A DNA stretch of 32,000 nt from Archaeoglobus fulgidus DSM 4304 (GCF_000008665.1 NC_000917.1:1920001-1952000), one strand, 5' to 3'; shown: positions 17,957 through 27,429, numbered from the stretch's first letter. Notes: generated by a model not told the origin, from the letters alone. Program-made: numbers and translations.

Positions 17957-18442
17957 TTACTTGGTATCAATGAAATAAGAAGTTTTCGATTTCCTCAGCA
18001 TTTCGGCAAGTTCTTCTGAGTAAGGAATAGGCAATCGCCTTCCCGAAGGTAATCTAAGGATGATTTCGTCTTTTTCAATCTCAAATTTGATTTTTTGCCA
18101 CTCAAAGAGGTATCCGTCAATCACTAAACCTTTGTCTGCAACAAATATTCTTTCGGATTTTAGTCCTGCATTGGCCCCTCCAAAGCTGAGAGAATCCTCT
18201 ACAACCACCTCTCCAATCACTTCCACCTCTAAAGTTTCCGTTTTATCCGTAATTTCGCTTATAAATGGAACGGCCAGAAGGGCGATTAGAATTCCCAACC
18301 CAGCAGCCATCACAGCGGAAAAAACCTCAATGGCAGAATTGGCATGAGGTATTAGAACCGCAAGACCTAAAATGGAGGTGTATAAAGCTGCGAAAACAGC
18401 GGCAACCTTTGCTCCCCACCCAACACTGCAGCTCTTAACCAT
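17957..18442 (-). CDS. Membrane protein with a soluble C-terminal domain, unknown family
   Basis: 161 aa with two N-terminal TM helices (AAVFAALYTSILGLAVLI, VMAAGLGILIALLAVPFI). First gene of the co-directional array. Confidence 0.5.
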   Translation of the reverse strand: MVKSCSVGWGAKVAAVFAALYTSILGLAVLIPHANSAIEVFSAVMAAGLGILIALLAVPFISEITDKTETLEVEVIGEVVVEDSLSFGGANAGLKSERIFVADKGLVIDGYLFEWQKIKFEIEKDEIILRLPSGRRLPIPYSEELAEMLRKSKTSYFIDTK

Positions 18443-18734: not shown

Positions 18735-19268
18735 CTAATCAAATAAATATGTTTTGGTTGGCTCGCACTTCCACCGCTGCCTCAAAGCGTCAAGCTGGGG
18801 GATGAGGGCTTTGTCAGGAATGAAGGTTCTGAAGAGGACGAAGCCGTGCTCATCCTTTGCTCTGACCACAATGGCATCTGTTTTAACTTCAGTGCCCTCT
18901 TTCACCAGCAAAATCTTGGCCATCCCTTTAACCTGACGGTCGTTGATGGTGAAGAAGTTGTTTGTGAAGGAATCGTAGAAGGAGACGGACCAGTAAGTGT
19001 TCTCAGGAACTTTTGCTTCAATCAGCAAAGGCCCCTCGGAGACGTCGTAGATGCAGAAGGAGTAAAGCAGGTTGGGGCTTGGCAGAACGACGGTTCTCTG
19101 GCTTGAGTTTATTGGAGGTGCGTGGTAGATTTTGTTCTCTTCGTAGCCTGCCGAGGTTGTTGTGTAGAAGTAGAAAACCATTATCAGCTTGGGAAGGAAG
19201 GCTACAAAGGCGATGTGAGCGATGATGGCGGAAATTGCGAAGACTGCGATATACTTCCTCATCTGCAC
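18735..19268 (-). CDS. Membrane-anchored DUF1254-like protein
   Basis: N-terminal TM IAVFAISAIIAHIAFVAFL. PSPNLLYSFCIYDVSEGPLLIEAKVPENTYWSVSFYDSFTNNF resembles the DUF1254 core, from memory of the family pattern. Confidence 0.55.
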   Translation of the reverse strand: MQMRKYIAVFAISAIIAHIAFVAFLPKLIMVFYFYTTTSAGYEENKIYHAPPINSSQRTVVLPSPNLLYSFCIYDVSEGPLLIEAKVPENTYWSVSFYDSFTNNFFTINDRQVKGMAKILLVKEGTEVKTDAIVVRAKDEHGFVLFRTFIPDKALIPQLDALRQRWKCEPTKTYLFD

Positions 19269-19837
19269 CCCTCCAGAATAATTTCTGGCAGCTGGACTGA
19301 CTGCGGGCTCTCGTAAACGATTTGTTCGGGATTGTAAAGCCTCAGGACGAGAATGAAGTTCCCTTCACCCCTCAGAGGAATCCAGCTGCCCTCCCGATGC
19401 CTCTGAGAGAGCTTCACAACCCACTTCCCGTCACTCCACTTCACACTCTCTCCAGTCACTGCATAGATGTCGTATTCGTTGGGAATGAGAAAGTGGTCAG
19501 AGCCGTAAACGGTGATGCTCCACCATCTCGCTGGAAACTTTCCTCCCTCAATTCTGTAGTCGCAGTTTAGCCTCAGGGGCTGATTGCTGCTATCCGTTGT
19601 TGCGATAAAGTAAACAGCCTCAGACCTGTTGAGGGCGAAAAGGGCGTGGATGGCAATGGCAGCTCTGGTGTAGATGTCGGCCTTTTCAGAGCCTGCAAGC
19701 AAGTTAGTCTCCCACGGACCGTTTTTCACGCTGAAAAGGTCTGCGATGTAATCAACGGCGTAGTAGGCTGTAATCACTCCGAATGCAATGCCTGCGATGG
19801 CAGCGAGAATCAGCCACTTCACAATTCTCCTATTCAA
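19259..19837 (-). CDS. Membrane-anchored DUF1214-like protein
   Basis: N-terminal TM WLILAAIAGIAFGVITAYYAV. FPARWWSITVYGSDHF and GNFILVLRLYNP resemble DUF1214. The track start is a TTG at 19837. A GTG at 19822 lies ~25 nt downstream of a TATA-like TTTATAAG, which would give a leaderless mRNA. Confidence 0.55.
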   Translation of the reverse strand: MNRRIVKWLILAAIAGIAFGVITAYYAVDYIADLFSVKNGPWETNLLAGSEKADIYTRAAIAIHALFALNRSEAVYFIATTDSSNQPLRLNCDYRIEGGKFPARWWSITVYGSDHFLIPNEYDIYAVTGESVKWSDGKWVVKLSQRHREGSWIPLRGEGNFILVLRLYNPEQIVYESPQSVQLPEIILEGCR

Positions 19838-19847
19838 AAATCCTTAT

Positions 19848-19868
19848 AAATATTACTGACAAATTGCT
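19848..19868 (+). repeat. Left copy of a perfect 21-bp direct repeat AAATATTACTGACAAATTGCT
   Basis: Identical 21-mer at 26582..26602 in the same orientation. Both copies overlap TATA-like elements. Confidence 0.9.
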
Positions 19869-19991
19869 TTACATTCTACCATCCCGTGTCAGCAAACCGC
19901 ACGATGTGGGATTGGTATGGCTAGAGCAATCGACAGAAAGATCGCAAGCACGAGTCTGTTCGCCAGCCTCAATTTATCCATGCTCCCTCTC

Positions 19992-20390
19992 CTAAGAAAC
20001 ACCAACAAAAGCCATAAACAAGCCCGAAGAGGCGACGTTCGCAGCGATCCACGTTGCTGCGAGATGCCTTCTGCTCGCATTAACGAGGGCGAGGGACGAG
20101 GTGAGGGCTAAAGCTAATCCTTCCAGGATACAAAGAGATGTTAGTATCACAACGCCGAGGTACGCTGGAATGCCGACGAATAGCCTTAGACCTTGAATGG
20201 ATGTAAAGTCGATTGCCACAAAGGAGAGTGTTACTGGGATGAACGCCTTCTCCTTAACCTCCACCCCAAAAATCCGTGAGTACAGCAGCAAGAGCGTAGC
20301 GTTGAGGGCGTAGGATAGCGAAACAACGAAGGCGACATATTCCGGGAAGGACGAGAAGCTGTTGGGAGGAATTAAAAAATTGAAGAACAT
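19992..20390 (-). CDS. Small 4-TM membrane protein M2, partner of peptidase-like P2
   Basis: 132 aa, starting 6 nt after the P2 stop. Paralogous to M1: both start MxFxFxIP and share [NS]R[KR]HLxxxWxxAN near the C-terminus. Confidence 0.6.
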   Translation of the reverse strand: MFFNFLIPPNSFSSFPEYVAFVVSLSYALNATLLLLYSRIFGVEVKEKAFIPVTLSFVAIDFTSIQGLRLFVGIPAYLGVVILTSLCILEGLALALTSSLALVNASRRHLAATWIAANVASSGLFMAFVGVS

Positions 20391-20396
20391 AAGCCC

Positions 20397-21140
20397 TCAG
20401 ATGTACATGTTGCAGTTGCCCACTTCCCTGTCCAGATCGCAGAACCATGCAGCGCTGTTCGCTTCAATCCTCGCCTCGTGTGCCGTCCTTTTCTGGTAAT
20501 TTGCATCGGAGTTTCCTGTCACGTGATCCCAGAATACGTCGGCCCAAGTTCTACAGGTTGGCAATCCGAAAGCATCGTAGTCGTGTATGCTCCCCGAAGC
20601 GCCAATAACGCACTCAACCCCCTTCCTCGCGAGGACGTTTGCCAGCGAATTCGGGTTTTCGTTTGCCGCGTAGCAGGCTTGAATCACGAAAAGCCGAGTC
20701 CGTAAGCCGTATACTGCGTGGTGGTAGCAGTACCAGAGCTCTGGGTGTTTACCTGTTCCCTTAACAACTATGCACTCTCCCTTTCCGTATCCTCCGCCCT
20801 CCTTGTTTCCGTGACCGGAATAAAACACAGCCTCGTAGTTTCTAAGAATTTGATTTACAGCGTTTGTGTTGTCTACAACGCCAAAGTCATCAACATCAGG
20901 ATCCCAATTCTTTTCCATCGAATTTTTTGCAGCGTTCGTGTTATCTTTAACCCACCAATCACCCGCTCTAAACACCGCTCCCTGATCGTTATCCACACCA
21001 ACCACCATTCCAAGCAGCCCACTCTGAACTAACTGAAACCACCTCCGTCCGCCTAACACCTGTATGGTGGCATGCCGCAGAAGTGCGGAACGAAGAAAAT
21101 TGCAACCACCAAGGTGGAAATGGAGTTGGCGAGCATCCAC
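20397..21140 (-). CDS. P2: predicted His-Cys (clan-CD-like) peptidase-domain protein, shorter paralog of P1; real start probably Met45 (21008)
   Basis: Aligns with P1 over ~200 aa: GVDNDQGAVFR, SMEKN, VNQIL, EAVFYSGHG, TRLFVIQACYA, WADVFWDHVTGNSDA, HEARIE, GNCNMYI. The first 44 codons overlap the M1 gene and look non-native. Confidence 0.65.
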   Translation of the reverse strand: MDARQLHFHLGGCNFLRSALLRHATIQVLGGRRWFQLVQSGLLGMVVGVDNDQGAVFRAGDWWVKDNTNAAKNSMEKNWDPDVDDFGVVDNTNAVNQILRNYEAVFYSGHGNKEGGGYGKGECIVVKGTGKHPELWYCYHHAVYGLRTRLFVIQACYAANENPNSLANVLARKGVECVIGASGSIHDYDAFGLPTCRTWADVFWDHVTGNSDANYQKRTAHEARIEANSAAWFCDLDREVGNCNMYI

Positions 21141-21517
21141 GAAATCACCAGATGCTTCCTGTTGACCTTCGTAAAAGCGAAGGATGCGGAATATCCAAGA
21201 ATTATCCCGCCAACGATCGCATCAAGCGCTCCAAGCTCTCCTCTGTATCTCGCCAGCTCGTCCATCAGTCTCCAGTCCCCCCACAGCCAGTAGGGCATGC
21301 TTACTATGCCCCAGCTAACGAGCCCACCAGCCAACATGGCGGCGAAGTCGAGTGGAACGAGCAGCATAGTCACGATCGGGAATTTGATCTTATCCACTTT
21401 TGATTTCGTTATCAAAGCGTATGCAGCAAGGAAGATTGCGTTTGTGGCGTAGGAGTTGATAATAAAGCTGAAATCGCCGAGTCCCGGATAGTAGGGGATG
21501 TAAAAAATGAAGAGCAT
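21053..21517 (-). CDS. Small 4-TM membrane protein M1, partner of peptidase-like P1 (start moved to Met42 of the track ORF)
   Basis: MLFIFYIPYYPGLGDF... starts 4 nt after the P1 stop. The upstream part of the track ORF overlaps P1 and is T/G/R-rich. Paralog of M2. Confidence 0.6.
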   Translation of the reverse strand: MLFIFYIPYYPGLGDFSFIINSYATNAIFLAAYALITKSKVDKIKFPIVTMLLVPLDFAAMLAGGLVSWGIVSMPYWLWGDWRLMDELARYRGELGALDAIVGGIILGYSASFAFTKVNRKHLVISWMLANSISTLVVAIFFVPHFCGMPPYRC

Positions 21518-21521
21518 GCTA

Positions 21522-22463
21522 TCAAATGTAGAAGTTGCAGTCTCCCCTCTCAACGTCGAGGTTGCAGTTCCTTGGTATCCAACCAAATAGGTTGTTAGTT
21601 TCAATCCTCGCTTCGTGTGGTGTCCTCCTGTACCCCGCATCTACATTGCCCGTTACTCTGTCCCAGAAGGCGTCAGCCCAAGCGGCACATGGTGACCAGT
21701 AGTTGTAGTCGTACAACTCCCCATCATCAGCGATAACGCACCTAACCCATTTCTCTACCAGCCACTCAGCCAGTCCATTGCCCGCATAGCAGGCTGAGAC
21801 AACGAAGAGCCTCGTTTGTCTGCCGTATGCAACATCTTTCGAGCAGAAGTTGATCTTGTTGCTGTTCTTCTCACCTTTAATCAGAATGCAGTAGTTGCTT
21901 CCGTGTCCAGAATAATACACCGCCTCGTTTTCCTCAAGTATCTGGTTTACAATGTGAGCGCATCCACTCTCACTGGAGCAGTCTAAAACGTCTCTGTTGT
22001 CCACGTTGCTATCCCACGGATAGTCTTTTGGTCTGTTTTTCTCCATCGAGCTTTCAGCAGCCTTTATATCATCCCAACATTTCGGATCGTCCACTCTGAA
22101 AACTGCCCCTTGGTTGTTGTCTACACCTTTAACGGAAGTCCTAAGAAAACCGTCATTCTCAAGACCCATCCCGCCCAACTTCCATCCAAGCTCGCTGAAG
22201 TTGATGTTTGTTTTGTATTTTTGCATAACCACCTTCAAAATTTCTTCGCCAACCTCTCTCTCGTTCTCCAAACTTATGATCCTGCTCGGCTTTGGCGTAA
22301 CCCACACCACACCAACGTCAGGAATGAACATCACACCCCCCTTCATGTTCTCCTTCATTATTTCCAACCTCTTCTTAATTCTCGGATTGAGATCAAACTT
22401 GAAATCACTCACCGGCATCTTCCTGAACGCTGCAATCTTACCAATCATCCTGTTAATTACCAC
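21522..22463 (-). CDS. P1: predicted His-Cys (clan-CD-like) peptidase-domain protein with a ~105-aa N-terminal extension; possibly frameshifted from an upstream signal peptide
   Basis: EAVYYSGHG, and 38 residues later TRLFVVSACYAG: a hydrophobic strand plus His-Gly, then a hydrophobic strand plus Ala-Cys. The C-terminal blocks are shared with P2. GTG start at 22463. Confidence 0.7.
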   Translation of the reverse strand: MVINRMIGKIAAFRKMPVSDFKFDLNPRIKKRLEIMKENMKGGVMFIPDVGVVWVTPKPSRIISLENEREVGEEILKVVMQKYKTNINFSELGWKLGGMGLENDGFLRTSVKGVDNNQGAVFRVDDPKCWDDIKAAESSMEKNRPKDYPWDSNVDNRDVLDCSSESGCAHIVNQILEENEAVYYSGHGSNYCILIKGEKNSNKINFCSKDVAYGRQTRLFVVSACYAGNGLAEWLVEKWVRCVIADDGELYDYNYWSPCAAWADAFWDRVTGNVDAGYRRTPHEARIETNNLFGWIPRNCNLDVERGDCNFYI

Positions 22464-22699
22464 ATAGCAATCTTCGCCGAAAACGGGGATACTGTTTCCC
22501 TCCCCGCGTACAGCTCAACAGAGGGCTTTGCGGTTGCCGTACGCTCAGCATTACCAAAACCAGCAGCACCGCAGCAATCCTTACCATGCCACAACACCTC
22601 TTAGCTCATGATACACAATGTCTAACAAAACTTAAATTTTTCGGTGCCAGTTTTTAACTTTTTAACATTAACATCTGAATTCCGCATCCGACAAAAATC

Positions 22700-23107
22700 T
22701 CATGAGACCATCTGCTCCAAGTCCTCTCTCGTTATCCTGTTCCTCCTTTCCTGATCTTTCCACAGCTTTCTGAAGTGGTAGAAGTATTCATACAGCTCCA
22801 ACTCATCTCTGCAGAACACGATTACGTGCTTTTCAATCACTTCAATTTTCATGTATAGGGGGAGTTCCTCAAAAAGCCAGACGTCGTATTTCTTCCCCAC
22901 CACATCGACTCTCTTGAAAACCTCCCTGATGTCATATCCCTCCGGCGAGACGATGCAAACGTCAATGTCTCTGCTTGAACTGCAATCTACCGCCGAGCCA
23001 AACAGGAGGACAGCAAGAACATCGTCTTTCAGGAACTCAAAGTCCCTATAAATTACATCTTTTTTCTCAGCCACGACTTCATCACCTTCACAAATTCCTG
23101 AAGGCAC
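22700..23107 (-). CDS. mntA: Minimal nucleotidyltransferase (MNT) of a HEPN/MNT pair
   Basis: VLLFGSAVDCSSSRDIDVCIV carries the GS...DxD polymerase-beta signature. ~125-135 aa. An alternative GTG start lies at 23074. Confidence 0.85.
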   Translation of the reverse strand: MPSGICEGDEVVAEKKDVIYRDFEFLKDDVLAVLLFGSAVDCSSSRDIDVCIVSPEGYDIREVFKRVDVVGKKYDVWLFEELPLYMKIEVIEKHVIVFCRDELELYEYFYHFRKLWKDQERRNRITREDLEQMVS

Positions 23108-23463
23108 GGAATGATCTCCTCTATTGAGTTGAGGGCAATTCTATCATCAAGTCCATTGTAGCGGTGAACCAGCCTGTTTCTAAGCCCATTCGCAACTTTT
23201 AAACATTCTGAAATATTTTTATCAACCATCTCCCCCCATTTCTGGAAGTTGGTGTAATCGTCTTTTGGGGGAACGCCAGAATCTCTAAGAAACATCGCCA
23301 CAAGATCGCATGCAGCTTCAACAGCCTCCTGAGCAGCTTTATAAACTGCCAGTCTCGACTTTTTGTCAACTTTTGCCTCCTCAATCCAGTTCAGAATGTC
23401 ACCAACTCTCTCCTCAATGTGTCCAAACTTGTCGAGATATCTGGCAATCCTCTTTTCGTCCAC
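23053..23463 (-). CDS. hepT: HEPN-domain protein (DUF86 type), putative RNase toxin of a HEPN/MNT pair
   Basis: RNRLVHRY is the R-x4-H HEPN motif near the C-terminus. 136 aa with a GTG start. It overlaps the MNT gene. Confidence 0.85.
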   Translation of the reverse strand: MDEKRIARYLDKFGHIEERVGDILNWIEEAKVDKKSRLAVYKAAQEAVEAACDLVAMFLRDSGVPPKDDYTNFQKWGEMVDKNISECLKVANGLRNRLVHRYNGLDDRIALNSIEEIIPCLQEFVKVMKSWLRKKM

Positions 23464-23492
23464 AGTTCAACTGTGACACAGTCATATATTAC
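23461..23492 (-). promoter_or_regulatory. HEPN/MNT promoter with an overlapping hexamer palindrome cluster
   Basis: The minus strand reads AATATATG (TATA-like) then gACTGTGtCACAGTtgaACTGTGgac. Three alternating ACTGTG/CACAGT hexamers (23461..23482) span the expected transcription start and the GTG start codon. Confidence 0.5.
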
Positions 23493-24463
23493 TGTTTTCC
23501 GTTATTGGGTCGGTATTTCTTGACATCATCGTTCAGAAGTTGAATGAAATTAACGCACTTATCGCCCCTGTAATCGTATCTCAGAATTTCGTTCGCATAG
23601 CCATCCTTCGTGTATCCTCCGAAAATGTAGATGTACTCGCCCCCGACAGCCACCGCCTGACCCCTTGCAACTGGAAGCTTGGTCCTCATCTCGCACAGCT
23701 CTCCTGTTTTCGGGTTAAATCTGATGATCTCATCCTTCGTTTCTGCGATTCCGCTGCTACCGCCGATGGCGAAGATGTAGCCATCCGCCACCGTAGCAGC
23801 TCTGACCCACACTCTGTCGGTGAAGGCTATCCACTTAAATCCTCCCATGGGGTCGAAGCTTGCAACCCCTTCGCCACAGAAAAAGTATGCTTTGCCGCCG
23901 TACCAAACGACCGAGTGAACACATCCTCCCGGATGCTCGATGGGGCAAGAAACATCCAATTTCGCAAAGCTTTCGTTGCTCGGATAAAAGGCGTAAACCT
24001 CGCATCTCTCGCTGTTGTTCAGGAAGATGTAAACCCTACTATCTCCCCACACCGCTGCCACGTCGGAGGTTGGATGGGGAAGAGATGCGTTTAGAACTCT
24101 TAACCTCTCCAATTTTGGGTTGAAGCTCAGTATCTGATCTGTGGGGGAATACTTTCCGTTCTCGAAGACAGTTCCGCCGAAGATTAGAATCTCCTCTCCA
24201 TCCCACACCGCCGCCTCCCTCTGACTGAAATCCTCACTGCTGAGAAGAATCTCCAGACGATTTGGAGGGTGGAATTCTGCAAAGGATGTTCCGTCAACAG
24301 TCCCCAAACCGAGGTAAACCCTATCTTCCGCCTTCACACTCCACCAGACGTACACGATAGACTCATCAGCTATTTTGCCGAGACTTGTAATCTTGTCTCC
24401 TTCATCAGTCACGCAGCAGCAAAGCAGTGCAATTGCGATGAGCAGAAGTGGCTGCGGTTTCAT
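23489..24463 (-). CDS. Secreted (lipoprotein-like) Kelch-repeat beta-propeller protein
   Basis: Signal MKPQPLLLIAIALLCCCV. Repeated Kelch-type strands ILIFGGT, RVYIFLNN, AYFFCGEG, YIFAIGGS, YIYIFGGY. GGGGATGA Shine-Dalgarno-like element before the ATG. Confidence 0.8.
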   Translation of the reverse strand: MKPQPLLLIAIALLCCCVTDEGDKITSLGKIADESIVYVWWSVKAEDRVYLGLGTVDGTSFAEFHPPNRLEILLSSEDFSQREAAVWDGEEILIFGGTVFENGKYSPTDQILSFNPKLERLRVLNASLPHPTSDVAAVWGDSRVYIFLNNSERCEVYAFYPSNESFAKLDVSCPIEHPGGCVHSVVWYGGKAYFFCGEGVASFDPMGGFKWIAFTDRVWVRAATVADGYIFAIGGSSGIAETKDEIIRFNPKTGELCEMRTKLPVARGQAVAVGGEYIYIFGGYTKDGYANEILRYDYRGDKCVNFIQLLNDDVKKYRPNNGKQ

Positions 24464-25221: not shown

Positions 25222-26243
25222 TCAAAACATCCGGCTTAAAATTTTTGCAGTGTTCTCGGGAAGTTCGCCCGATTTTACCATGTTTCGCAGGACTTGCTCA
25301 GCGATTTTGTCCGCTTTCGCTTTGTCGGTCATTTTGAACTCGATTACCAACCACCCGTTTTCGAATTTTCTGCTAACTTTTATTGCTCCAGACTTCTCAA
25401 GCATCGTAGCATATTCTTTCACCCATTTTTTGATTTGCACGTTAGTGCCTTTGGCATCCTTAGCAACGAGGGGGCTAAAGGTTGCTGACATTGCGTTTGG
25501 ACTTCTCGTCAGTTCAATCGATTTCTCGTACGGATTGCAATTAACTTCTTGAACGTAATCATCGTAGTCTGCAACGACGCCCGTTAAATACAGAGATAGA
25601 TAGAGTGTGTTCCCTGCAGGTGAGTTCCAGAAAGTCAGTTCAGCATAATATTCGGCAGCGAACTTGTTGTAGGCGTTGCTCAGGTCACTCTCACTTGGGG
25701 AGGAGCCGTAAAGCGATTTCATGGCCTTTGCAATAAGTTTCGTAGGGATGGCGATCCTCACGAAGTCCCAGTTCCAACCTTTTTCGTGGATGACTCTGCC
25801 GTTCACGTAAAATTCTGCTGTTATGTGATCTATTCCGTATTTCTGTGCAGCGTAGTTTGAGTAACCCACACCGTAGGTGCGATCATTGGGCAGTCCTTGT
25901 CCGTTTCCGTGGGCCACCCTATCCTGCATTAAATGGGCTAGCCATCCTTTTGCGAATGCTTTTTCGTCGGTTCCTTTTGCCAAGCTCAACATTGTGTTCG
26001 CTATTTTGATTGCCTTATTCACGTCTTCACCATGGAATTTTTTACCCCAGTCAACAGAGATCGTATAGCCAGCATCCGGCGCAATGGAGCCAGATAAGTA
26101 TTCCATTTTAAATCCCGGATGGGGGTTTCCAGCTTCTGATGACACCTGACGTGCGTTATGGTTCCCCAAGCCATCACCGGTGTCACTAAACTTCCCAGCA
26201 CTACAAACACCAGCACCAACCCAAGCGCTTTGCTACCCCACAT
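25222..26243 (-). pseudogene. Secreted Zn-dependent phospholipase C / S1-P1 nuclease-fold hydrolase, split by a 1-nt frameshift after the signal peptide
   Basis: ORF 26019..26243 encodes the signal MWGSKALGLVLVFVVLGSLVTPVMA followed by WGTITH (the W1/H6 Zn-ligand pattern). The remaining ligand-like blocks GSIAPDAGY, FHGED, WLAHLMQDRVAHG and DHITAEF lie in ORF 25222..26169, in the -1 frame. Confidence 0.6.
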
Positions 26244-26366: not shown

Positions 26367-26581
26367 GGTCTTATACTTGAGCTATCATAAGGCAATTTTT
26401 TAATACTTTGCACATAGCATCAAATATGCTCATGCACCTGCTAACGTCAAAGAGGGGAATTGAGGTGCTCAAAGCTCTTGCATCAGGTCCCAAGAGCAGA
26501 ACTGTTTGAGTATGTTAAAGTGAACTCTGCGAGATTGGGGTTTAGATTTACTGGAATAGTTCAGAAGCAACAAATGTTTTA

Positions 26582-26602
26582 AAATATTACTGACAAATTG
26601 CT
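26582..26602 (+). repeat. Right copy of the perfect 21-bp direct repeat AAATATTACTGACAAATTGCT
   Basis: Identical to 19848..19868. It overlaps TTTAAAATA (26578..26586), a TATA-like box 23 nt upstream of the ATG at 26605. Confidence 0.9.
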
Positions 26603-26604
26603 CT

Positions 26605-27429
26605 ATGAACAGGATTGCTAAACTCCTCAAAACGAAGTATCCGATAGTTCAGGGCCCGATGGCCGGAATAACTCTCGGAGAATTTGCTTCTACAGTGTCT
26701 GAGGCTGGCGGGCTTGGAGTTATAGCTTCTGCCGGCCTTTCGCCTGAAAAACTAAAAGAGGAGATAGAGAAAGTTAAGAACAGGACTGATAAGCCCTTCG
26801 CCGTGAACATTCCAATATATCAGCCCGGCTCGGAGAAGAATCTTGAGACTGCACTTAAAGCTGATGTTGGGATTATTTACACCTCTGCAGGAAGCCCGGA
26901 GAAATACACTGAGAGAGTAAAGGAATCCGGGGCAAAAGTCATACACAAGGTGTCGAGGTTGAAAGAGGGGCTGAAAGCGGAGAAGGCGGGAGTGGATGCT
27001 GTGGTTGCGATGGGCTTTGAGGCGGGAGGGATTATAGGGAGGAGTGGTGTAACATCCTTCTGCTTGATTCCTGAGCTTGCCGACAACCTCAGCATTCCAG
27101 TTGTAGCCGCTGGCGGGATAGCAGATGAGAGGGGATTTGCTGCAGCCCTGATTCTCGGAGCGGAAGGTGTTGAGATTGGCACGAGACTGCTTGCAACCAA
27201 AGAGTGTCCCGTGCCGGAAAGCATTAAGCAAGCTATTTTAAAAGCCACCTGCGACTCCACGATGGTTATTGAGAGCCCGGTTGTAATGAGAGCTCTCAAG
27301 CCAGAGCTGAGCGGAGATTCTGAGAATCCTGCTCTGGGAGGGCAGGTTTCAGGGCTGATTAAGGAGATTCTTACGGTTGAAGAGGTAATCAGGAAAATTG
27401 CAGAGGGGCTGAATAAAGCTAAATTCTAA
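26605..27429 (+). CDS. Nitronate monooxygenase / FabK-like FMN-dependent oxidoreductase (NMO family)
   Basis: YPIVQGPMAGITLGEFASTVSEAGGLGVIA, and later AGGIADERGFAAALILGAEGVEIGTRLL. These are typical NMO (2-nitropropane dioxygenase-like) TIM-barrel blocks. Confidence 0.85.
   Translation: MNRIAKLLKTKYPIVQGPMAGITLGEFASTVSEAGGLGVIASAGLSPEKLKEEIEKVKNRTDKPFAVNIPIYQPGSEKNLETALKADVGIIYTSAGSPEKYTERVKESGAKVIHKVSRLKEGLKAEKAGVDAVVAMGFEAGGIIGRSGVTSFCLIPELADNLSIPVVAAGGIADERGFAAALILGAEGVEIGTRLLATKECPVPESIKQAILKATCDSTMVIESPVVMRALKPELSGDSENPALGGQVSGLIKEILTVEEVIRKIAEGLNKAKF

Follow-up and report, generated by a model that had tools for sequence, protein, structure and literature searches.

In the 32,000-nucleotide (nt) stretch of the Archaeoglobus fulgidus DSM 4304 genome analysed here (NC_000917.1:1920001-1952000; hereafter the window), four adjacent genes, all on the minus strand, form two pairs, each composed of a gene for a peptidase-domain protein (P) and a gene for its partner (M), a small membrane protein with four transmembrane segments (4-TM). 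The open reading frames (ORFs) of P1, P2, M1 and M2 (see Table 1) lie where a sequence-only reading of the window had placed them, and several of the relationships it proposed are borne out: P1 and P2 are paralogues (45% identity over 222 amino acids (aa), expectation value (E) 9e-51), as are, more distantly, M1 and M2 (29% identity over 141 aa, E 2e-8); the His of the SGHG motif and the Cys of the ACYA motif are separated by 38 residues in P1 (H187, C225) and by 46 in P2 (H110, C156); the stop codon of P and the ATG of M are 4 nt apart in P1-M1 and 6 nt apart in P2-M2. Two of its claims had to be given up, namely that the whole two-gene unit was duplicated and both pairings were kept, since P1-M1 and P2-M2 are each closer to relatives in other genomes than to the neighbouring pair, and, implicitly, that the P genes are intact, since both lack the signal peptide and the N-terminal domains of their full-length relatives. 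The locus is described below as the probable remnant of a family of secreted, protease-like proteins whose C-terminal domains and downstream partner genes appear to be exchanged together.

Table 1. Coordinates of the P and M genes of the window and of the parts recognised in them
Feature	Coordinates	Strand	Remarks
P1, listed ORF	21522..22463	-	start GTG 22463
P1, open frame	21522..22514	-	stop-to-stop to 22514; end of PepSY-like domain 1, PepSY-like domain 2, catalytic domain
P1, relic of the 5' end	22498..22587	-	three-frame translation; ATG 22587 preceded by GAGGTG
P1, catalytic domain	21522..22148	-	208 aa; predicted clan-CD caspase-like fold; His187 codon 21903-21905, Cys225 codon 21789-21791
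M1, ORF	21053..21517	-	154 aa; intact M-family member
P2, listed ORF	20397..21140	-	start GTG 21140
P2, putative displaced 'orphan' catalytic domain	20397..21008	-	His codon 20811-20813, Cys codon 20673-20675
M2, ORF	19992..20390	-	132 aa; intact M-family member of a subtype other than M1
Putative inserted cassette	21000..22404	-	about 1.35 kb absent from locus L012: P1 PepSY-like domain 2, P1 catalytic domain, M1

For the C-terminal domain of P a clan-CD fold had been guessed from its motifs, and both a structural model and a Foldseek comparison with the PDB agree with the guess. The AlphaFold model of the P1 catalytic domain, built on a diverse alignment, has a predicted local distance difference test (pLDDT) score of 92.3 and a predicted TM-score (pTM) of 0.91; it replaced a model of the whole of P1 (15-sequence alignment) which had reached a pLDDT of 51 and gave weak Foldseek matches. 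The secondary structure elements of the domain are modelled in the order b-a-b-a-b(His)-hairpin-b(Cys)-a-b-a-a-b, with H82 of the domain (H187 of P1) following the strand 76-80 and C120 (C225 of P1) following the strand 114-118. All of the 12 Foldseek matches with E <= 1e-3 are clan-CD enzymes (8tl0, 1cvr, 4awb, 6l4y, 6n9j, 4m9r and 8imy_K among them), with TM-scores normalised to the query of 0.47-0.64; the best is the SAVED-CHAT protease 8tl0 (E 4.6e-8, TM-score 0.62), and the others include gingipain R (1cvr; E 1.5e-5, TM-score 0.64), legumain (4awb), an asparaginyl endopeptidase/ligase, a C11 enzyme (6n9j), CED-3, GPI8 (8imy_K), caspase-4 and -11, and separase. With the clan-CD peptidases (CHAT, gingipain R of family C25, legumain and GPI8 of C13, C11, the caspases of C14 and separase of C50) P shares the alpha/beta fold and its strand order, as well as the placing of a His-Gly after one hydrophobic strand and of a small residue plus Cys after the next one, in the same order and with the same spacing; like gingipains, C11 enzymes and legumain, it is, in its full-length forms, apparently secreted and provided with a prodomain. 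The His and the Cys are invariant in every relative aligned; indeed, in an alignment of 16 diverse sequences, which includes distant members at 18-29% identity, the only three invariant residues are the His, the Cys and a second Cys in the GVxCVIG motif. The model and these comparisons support a clan-CD (caspase/gingipain/legumain) fold with a His-Cys dyad for the P catalytic domain, peptidase activity itself being predicted.

Where P differs from the described clan-CD families is in the absence of any threshold-level Pfam or NCBIfam match and of any PDB relative detectable by sequence, in agreement with the earlier statement that no named family could be assigned: none of the libraries searched gives a match for P at threshold. 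Against Peptidase_C14 (PF00656, gathering threshold 21.4 bits) P2 scores 13.4 bits (E 0.063) and its homologue P0036 13.8 bits, and P1 has no match; against Peptidase_C13 (PF01650, threshold 22.8 bits) P0006 and P0014 score 13.4 and 11.9 bits, in the His-to-Cys region only (E 0.055 and 0.16 for two homologues), so that the UniRef name 'C13 family peptidase' carried by P0006 is not supported by a threshold-level match. CHAT (PF12770) gives no match at E <= 1-5 for P1, P2 and four homologues, even though SAVED-CHAT tops the structural matches; a search of NCBIfam returned no match for P or M, and a profile search of the PDB sequences no relative of P. Word-index homologue searches with P yielded 15 clusters, to which a third such search, with a catalytic-domain profile, added nothing; an exhaustive profile search of 1.84 billion representatives (E <= 0.001) brought the family to 37 proteins, and a scan of viral contigs for relatives was negative. 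Since no Pfam family is reached at threshold, the P family can be regarded as new and tiny; by the Pfam criterion it is neither C13, nor C14, nor CHAT, and its placement as a new family within clan CD is supported by the model. Its own features are a first strand with DN[ND]QGAVFR, six invariant Cys, a C-terminal CxLDxEKGxCNIYI motif, and the fusion of a clan-CD domain to PepSY/DUF4901-like domains.

This last feature is seen in the homologues of P, which are 340-470 aa long and, when full-length, consist of a Sec-type leader, two PepSY/DUF4901-like domains and the C-terminal catalytic domain, in this order. Sec-type leaders, K/R-rich, hydrophobic and Ala-rich, can be recognised by eye in P0002, P0003, P0006 and P0013 and in the proteins of the loci L015 and L029. 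The N-terminal region matches DUF4901/PepSY with E 3e-5, and with E 1.8e-7 in a distant clade; the DUF4901 score of P0003 is 24.6 bits against a cut-off of 27, and P0037, a distant member, scores 31.8 bits for DUF4901 and 27.3 bits for PepSY, both above cut-off. That the distant clade keeps both modules, in the opposite order, suggests a functional reason for pairing PepSY-like with catalytic domains.

Some members of the family depart from this scheme. In the permuted clade, with the catalytic domain first and the PepSY-like domains last, the gene called for P0050 (L022 448-1593) does not yield the recorded protein under translation table 11, which suggests that this lineage uses an alternative genetic code; its neighbours are bacterial-looking (HU, M50 peptidase), and in the one long contig seen from this probably bacterial clade no neighbouring gene of membrane or lipoprotein type was found. 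P0020 (L024 5001-8834) is a Cys-rich secreted protein of 1277 aa in which the same catalytic domain (residues 857-1046) is followed by a PepSY-like domain, and which is flanked on both sides by paralogous multi-transmembrane proteins of 207 and 188 aa.

Set beside the full-length relatives, P1 retains the 3' two-thirds of a gene which frameshifts and a deletion have disrupted towards its 5' end, up to ATG 22587. Its match to the family hidden Markov model (HMM) spans positions 121-427 of 427; the open frame lacks a signal peptide and, through a deletion, most of PepSY-like domain 1. Upstream of it, three relics lie in three different frames, namely the leader MVRIAAVLLVLVMLS, an ELYAGRE motif and an IPVFGEDCYVV block; the signal peptide MVRIAAVLLVLVMLS is read in one frame and TATAKPSVELYAGRE in a second one, neither being the frame of P1, and ELYAGRE resembles the EFYAGRE motif which directly follows the signal peptide in full-length homologues. 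The corresponding database protein, P0001 ('hypothetical protein [Archaeoglobus fulgidus]'), starts at ATG 22448 and is about 99.7% identical to P1, with one substitution in 308 aa.

P2, which likewise has no signal peptide and no PepSY-like domain, is reduced further. Homology to the family is confined to about 20397..20999, beginning with the GVDNDQGAVFR block at 20999 and reaching the stop codon; the ORF, where it extends to GTG 21140, runs into the end of M1, and ATG 21008 is the sole in-frame start after the M1 stop. How this arrangement may have come about can be read from L012, a contig of Archaeoglobus sp. CTOTU24189 which is syntenic with the window by blastn. Positions 603-2834 of L012 match window positions 20999-18761 at 94.5% nt identity, a stretch that takes in the catalytic domain of P2 as well as M2 and the DUF1214/DUF1254 genes that follow it, and positions 254-346 match window positions 22497-22405, in the 5' block of P1, at 91%. 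L012 has a single full-length P gene, the 5' part of which is P1-like and the catalytic domain of which is 99% identical in amino acids to that of P2; the M2 orthologue comes directly after it. Since L012 has one full-length gene in this form, the comparison places the P1-M1 cassette inside the P gene of A. fulgidus, the old catalytic domain and M2 having apparently been left downstream as a start-less orphan; the signal peptide and the first PepSY-like domain of the resulting hybrid P1 gene appear to have been lost later. On this comparison P1-M1 and P2-M2 are old and distinct module types, probably brought together by cassette insertion and displacement. The displacement itself looks recent from the small numbers of differences, which in the P2 catalytic domain amount to 6 synonymous and 2 non-synonymous ones between window and L012, and in M2 (95.5% aa identity to its orthologue) to 12 synonymous and 6 non-synonymous ones. 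The reverse event, in which the orphan was fused to the upstream gene with deletion of the P1 catalytic domain and M1, fits equally well; displaced orphan toxin/immunity modules have been described for the contact-dependent growth inhibition (CDI) and Rhs systems, for which both routes, displacement and orphan fusion, are known (PMC4927057). In a further locus, L025 (LZQN01000057.1), 99.3% identical to the window, P2 is frameshifted and about 410 nt are gone (window 19901-20310), with most of M2; the orphan module therefore turns over at strain level.

The exchange suggested by L012 recurs in the family. In L029 two full-length P genes stand in tandem whose products are 100% identical from residue 1 to about 165 and 40-67% identical over the remainder; the first is followed by a gene for a DUF2330-like membrane protein, as is the P gene of L015, and the second by an M gene. 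The switch occurs directly after the MTGKIAAYRKMP block, where the left breakpoint of the comparison of the window with L012 also falls; another junction that recurs is the DN[ND]QGAVFR block, with which the catalytic domain begins. Alignment of these loci thus locates the apparent recombination points at the conserved coding blocks MTGKIAAFRKMP and DN[ND]QGAVFR, and points to a constant N-terminal part of P, with PepSY-like domain 2, the catalytic domain and the partner gene exchanged as one cassette. P0005, to judge from its sequence, is a mosaic as well and joins the second PepSY-like domain of L012 to another catalytic type. Codon-level analysis detected no excess of synonymous-site conservation at the junction blocks; specialised recombination sites were therefore dropped, and the junctions are best taken as ordinary substrates of homologous recombination at the most conserved coding blocks. 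In other clades the partner, too, is of another kind: a lipoprotein-like protein of 150 aa in L018-L020 and L031, and a Cys-rich protein of 187 aa with three transmembrane segments in L006. Catalytic domains of different types thus have partners of different families. All the variable domains found are homologous clan-CD domains, and no unrelated folds were encountered, the sole hint of another warhead being P0019, a chimera with a neighbouring HExxH protein.

The latter protein is encoded in L007 (2411-3975), has 373 aa, is secreted and carries a zincin-like HEVSH motif (weak Reprolysin_5 match); its gene overlaps by 4 nt the next one, for a multi-transmembrane protein of 148 aa ending in YPPCGTV, and the two make up, within the same island, a pair of secreted peptidase and small membrane protein non-homologous to P-M. 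In P0019 residues 123-172 of the zincin-like protein (68% identical) are joined to a P catalytic domain. In two clades DUF6345 proteins are encoded a few kb upstream of P (L009 3681-4475; L018 2516-3310; L019 and L020 likewise), with a signal peptide, an FAGHG motif and, later, a (T/S)GC or SC motif; hhalign aligns their GHG and Cys with the His and Cys of P at a probability of only 21%, and they may be another unrecognised clan-CD-like secreted family. A literature search, in which the main archaeal review was not covered, returned nothing on the P family, nor on DUF6345 in such a context. Between successive P-M modules a protein of 213-215 aa is encoded in L002 (7740-8381), L004 (3241-3882) and L009 (7451-8098), with an N-terminal transmembrane segment, a Cys-rich C-terminus and no family match; within 1-2 kb of P in several unrelated loci (L001, L007/L008, L015, L018-L020 and L031) lies a gene for an HTH_20/HTH_5-type regulator, in some cases with C-terminal transmembrane segments, which could regulate the P-M module.

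P and M were mapped by HMMs over L001-L005, L007-L014, L016, L017, L021, L025-L027, L029 and L032, which derive from Geoglobus acetivorans, several Archaeoglobus/Archaeoglobi metagenome-assembled genomes (MAGs), one 'Euryarchaeota' MAG and metagenome contigs. The succession of a peptidase gene and a 4-TM gene, noticed in the window, recurs in these genomes: every P, truncated P or P remnant is directly followed by an M-family ORF, the DUF2330-like partner of the first P of L029 apart. The adjacency holds in 20 of the fetched loci, many of them near-identical copies, which amount to about 10 independent arrangements; the cognate gene lies 2-35 nt downstream of P and is usually that of the small 4-TM protein. 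In about 8 modules a short or broken P (remnants of 35-130 aa, or frameshifted genes) stands beside an intact M, as observed in L004 (twice), L009/L013, L014, L016, L017 and the window; among the mapped loci no intact P with a broken M was seen, and L013 has one module in which both P and M are broken.

The M proteins themselves fall into at least 5 subtypes, 15-35% identical to each other, which have in common an N-terminal M[LF]FxF[LI]xP, a loop with NRKH...W..AN and the fourth helix, and differ in the length and sequence of the segment between helices 2 and 3; a tail FCGxxPYxC, ending in Cys, is conserved in three subtypes. M1 (M-family HMM, E 2e-61), with its four hydrophobic segments, carries MLFxFxIP at the N-terminus and the tail FCGMPPYRC at the C-terminus, and is 57% identical to the M protein encoded downstream of P0007 in L004; M2 has no FCGxxPYxC tail. 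From hydropathy and the positive-inside rule we infer an outward orientation of the N-terminus, the C-terminus and the variable loop that joins helices 2 and 3. M types and the C-terminal types of P are correlated (Mantel r 0.44, p 0.001), and M is about twice as divergent as the P C-terminus (mean identity 34% versus 63%). Searches of Pfam, NCBIfam, PADLOC and the PDB assigned M to no family, the profile search of the PDB giving only a spurious transmembrane match.

Taken together, these observations lead us to favour, tentatively and at slightly less than even odds, a polymorphic system of secreted effector and membrane-bound, immunity-like partner, found almost only in Archaeoglobi, of which the window would hold a worn remnant. 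P would be an extracellular effector protease kept latent through its PepSY-like domains, and M would shield the cell surface from the cognate protease, so that both the producer and the carriers of an orphan M are protected; the system would serve competition or kin discrimination among Archaeoglobi, and the window would be largely an 'immunity-only' relic. Among the roles listed in the sequence-only reading, that of an immunity partner is the one favoured by the comparative data, and that of a protease-controlled membrane effector in a defence island found no support. A fuller version, which we hold with more reserve still, is that of an undescribed Sec-dependent archaeal polymorphic effector system with new clan-CD protease warheads, cognate polytopic membrane immunity proteins (M, the DUF2330-like and others), cassette swapping and orphan immunity, in which A. 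fulgidus would be an 'immune non-producer'.

The closest parallels to such a system are bacterial. With CDI (cdiA-CT/cdiI) and Rhs, P-M shares a constant N-terminal part, in P with a predicted role in secretion, followed by a variable C-terminal enzymatic part, a co-varying cognate gene immediately downstream, start-less C-terminal fragments displaced downstream with their partner, and mosaics recombining at conserved junction motifs; it differs from them in being archaeal and apparently dependent on Sec only, in having no filamentous, Rhs or type V, VI or VII (T5/T6/T7) delivery module, in that the variable domains are all homologous proteases, and in that the partners are polytopic or membrane-anchored, toxicity and immunity being predicted here. 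Among the domains catalogued in bacterial polymorphic toxins, with a toxic or a processing role, are caspase-like ones ('Tox-Caspase'; PMC3482391). In sequence M is related to no described family. Polytopic immunity proteins, which protect against membrane-acting bacteriocins and against toxins of the type VI and type VII secretion systems (T6SS/T7SS), are small, with multiple transmembrane segments, encoded right after the effector, divergent between strains and often orphan; their cognate toxins are pore-formers or lipid-targeting and not proteases. In the staphopain/staphostatin operons and in the pairs of C10 protease and lipoprotein inhibitor of Bacteroides, a protease gene is directly followed by a small cognate gene whose product is believed to shield the producer, and paralogous pairs have matched specificity; the inhibitors are soluble beta-barrels and not 4-TM proteins, the proteases are papain-like enzymes of clan CA, and we know of no description of orphan-cassette dynamics for them.

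Several points weigh against the effector-immunity interpretation. All the variable catalytic domains are homologues of one another, at 40-60% identity, unlike the unrelated warheads of classical polymorphic toxins; there is no dedicated delivery apparatus or target known for P, nor a clear way for a 4-TM protein with short external segments to neutralise a protease, and the topology of M is deduced from hydropathy and the positive-inside rule alone. The faster divergence of M could reflect weak constraint on a small membrane protein, and the loss in L025, where P2 is frameshifted and M2 largely deleted, means that an orphan M is not always retained; the breakpoints show no excess of synonymous conservation, and the only A. 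fulgidus protein returned by the protein searches is P0001. Alternatively, P would be an ordinary extracellular protease with a dedicated membrane partner that anchors, activates or positions it at the surface of the producer, engaged in nutrient acquisition or surface-protein maturation without any role in conflict, the mosaicism being due to paralogue recombination in a fast-evolving island of secreted proteins. This we regard as unlikely, yet as a contender to be taken seriously: P is apparently secreted, with a PepSY-like prodomain of the kind usual in secreted zymogens, its coupling to M is tight and extends to a co-variation of types, the related loci are rich in other pairs of secreted protein and small membrane protein, and M2 was lost in L025 once P2 was broken. 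An anchor or activator, however, is useless without its protease, and yet an intact M is kept behind P remnants of 35-130 aa in many modules, and the non-synonymous rate of M2 is low despite the start-less P2; hard to explain in these terms is also the combination of identical N-terminal halves with alternative catalytic domains and non-homologous partners. An improbable alternative makes M the substrate, P being a processing enzyme of sortase or transamidase type (compare GPI8, PorU and the plant asparaginyl ligases) that cleaves or ligates the FCGxxPYxC tail or the N-terminus of M. The presence of GPI8 and of peptide-ligase asparaginyl endopeptidases among the structural matches speaks for it, together with the co-variation of P and M types and a tail which in three M subtypes is conserved and ends in Cys; this tail, however, is missing from the M2 and x subtypes and has no counterpart in the alternative partners (DUF2330-like, lipoprotein-like, Cys-rich with three transmembrane segments), and orphan M genes persist without a working P.

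The sequence-only reading had also considered a protease-controlled membrane effector of the defence-island kind. On this view an intracellular caspase-like P would sense infection and control M as a membrane effector that aborts it, next to HEPN/MNT genes in an anti-virus island. The window copies of P do lack signal peptides, the HEPN/MNT pair adjoins them and the best structural match is a SAVED-CHAT protease associated with CRISPR and with the cyclic-oligonucleotide-based anti-phage signalling system (CBASS); this reading is nevertheless very improbable, the absence of a signal peptide being a matter of secondary decay, with leader relics upstream of P1 and apparently secreted full-length relatives, so that the ancestral protein was probably secreted and not cytoplasmic. 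None of the four window proteins matches a defence-system model of PADLOC-DB at E <= 1, no relatives were found on viral contigs, the many invariant Cys fit an extracellular, disulfide-bonded protein, and none of the other loci fetched has the HEPN/MNT pair beside P, L001 alone having an NTP_transf_2 gene at a distance of about 3.5 kb. Hardly credible at all is a simple local tandem duplication that left four intact and functional genes. The two pairs do lie head to tail, in the same orientation and with the same spacing, and both catalytic-domain frames are open; identity, however, is as low as 45% for P1/P2 and 29% for M1/M2, closer relatives are found elsewhere (99% for P2 and 95.5% for M2 in L012, 57% for M1 in L004), the syntenic L012 has a single gene, and both P copies are without the N-terminal parts of their homologues.

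The interest of the locus goes beyond A. fulgidus. Competition and recognition among archaea are poorly known, and almost all polymorphic effector/immunity systems have been worked out in bacteria; the P family would add a new, predicted branch of the caspase fold, and with it a case from the archaea in which cassettes are displaced and modules orphaned. If the effector-immunity interpretation is right, a secreted protease faced by a small membrane protector would be a mode of neutralisation without a worked-out precedent, and would imply protease-based antagonism or kin discrimination between archaea. For annotation, and for the choice of a member to study, it matters that two 'hypothetical proteins' of A. 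fulgidus are apparently relics: the window copy is decayed and is therefore of lower direct experimental value, still serving as an entry point to the P family, and the full-length genes of Geoglobus acetivorans or Archaeoglobus sp. are the members to use.

As to the surroundings, the sequence-only reading had described the block as bracketed by repeats. A direct repeat of 34 nt, AAATCCTTATAAATATTACTGACAAATTGCTTTA, does exist in two copies, 85% identical, at 19838-19871 and 26572-26605, which enclose the P/M, HEPN/MNT and Kelch genes; its role as an island boundary was not confirmed and has been set aside, the match to L012 crossing the first copy. This copy is placed just upstream of the start of the DUF1214 gene and includes a TATA-like TTATAAATA; in view of the unbroken synteny with L012, the repeat may represent a promoter element common to both sites and not the edge of an island. 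Directly downstream of M2, and beside it also in L012, are the DUF1214 (E 4e-25) and DUF1254 (E 2e-22) genes (18735-19837, minus strand), whose products have N-terminal hydrophobic segments. Farther on, at 16847-17970 (minus strand), a protein of 307 aa with an N-terminal transmembrane segment, a DUF7490 domain and a PGF-CTERM archaeosortase signal (E 5e-6) is encoded by a gene whose 3' end overlaps by 22 nt the start of the gene for a hydrophobic protein of 73 aa, another pair of surface protein and small membrane protein.

On the other side, the presence of HEPN/MNT neighbours upstream of P1, as earlier noted, is upheld by profile matches (HepT-like, E 2.6e-20; Polbeta nucleotidyltransferase, E 6.9e-7). 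The two genes, for a HepT-like HEPN protein and an MNT nucleotidyltransferase, occupy 22700-23463 (minus strand), overlap by 55 nt and look like a typical type VII toxin-antitoxin arrangement; they are not conserved beside P-M modules in the other genomes fetched. Beyond them, again on the minus strand, are genes for a Kelch-repeat protein with a signal peptide (23489-24463) and a protein with a zinc-dependent phospholipase C domain (25222-26169; E 2.8e-11), further functions of secreted or surface type near the locus.

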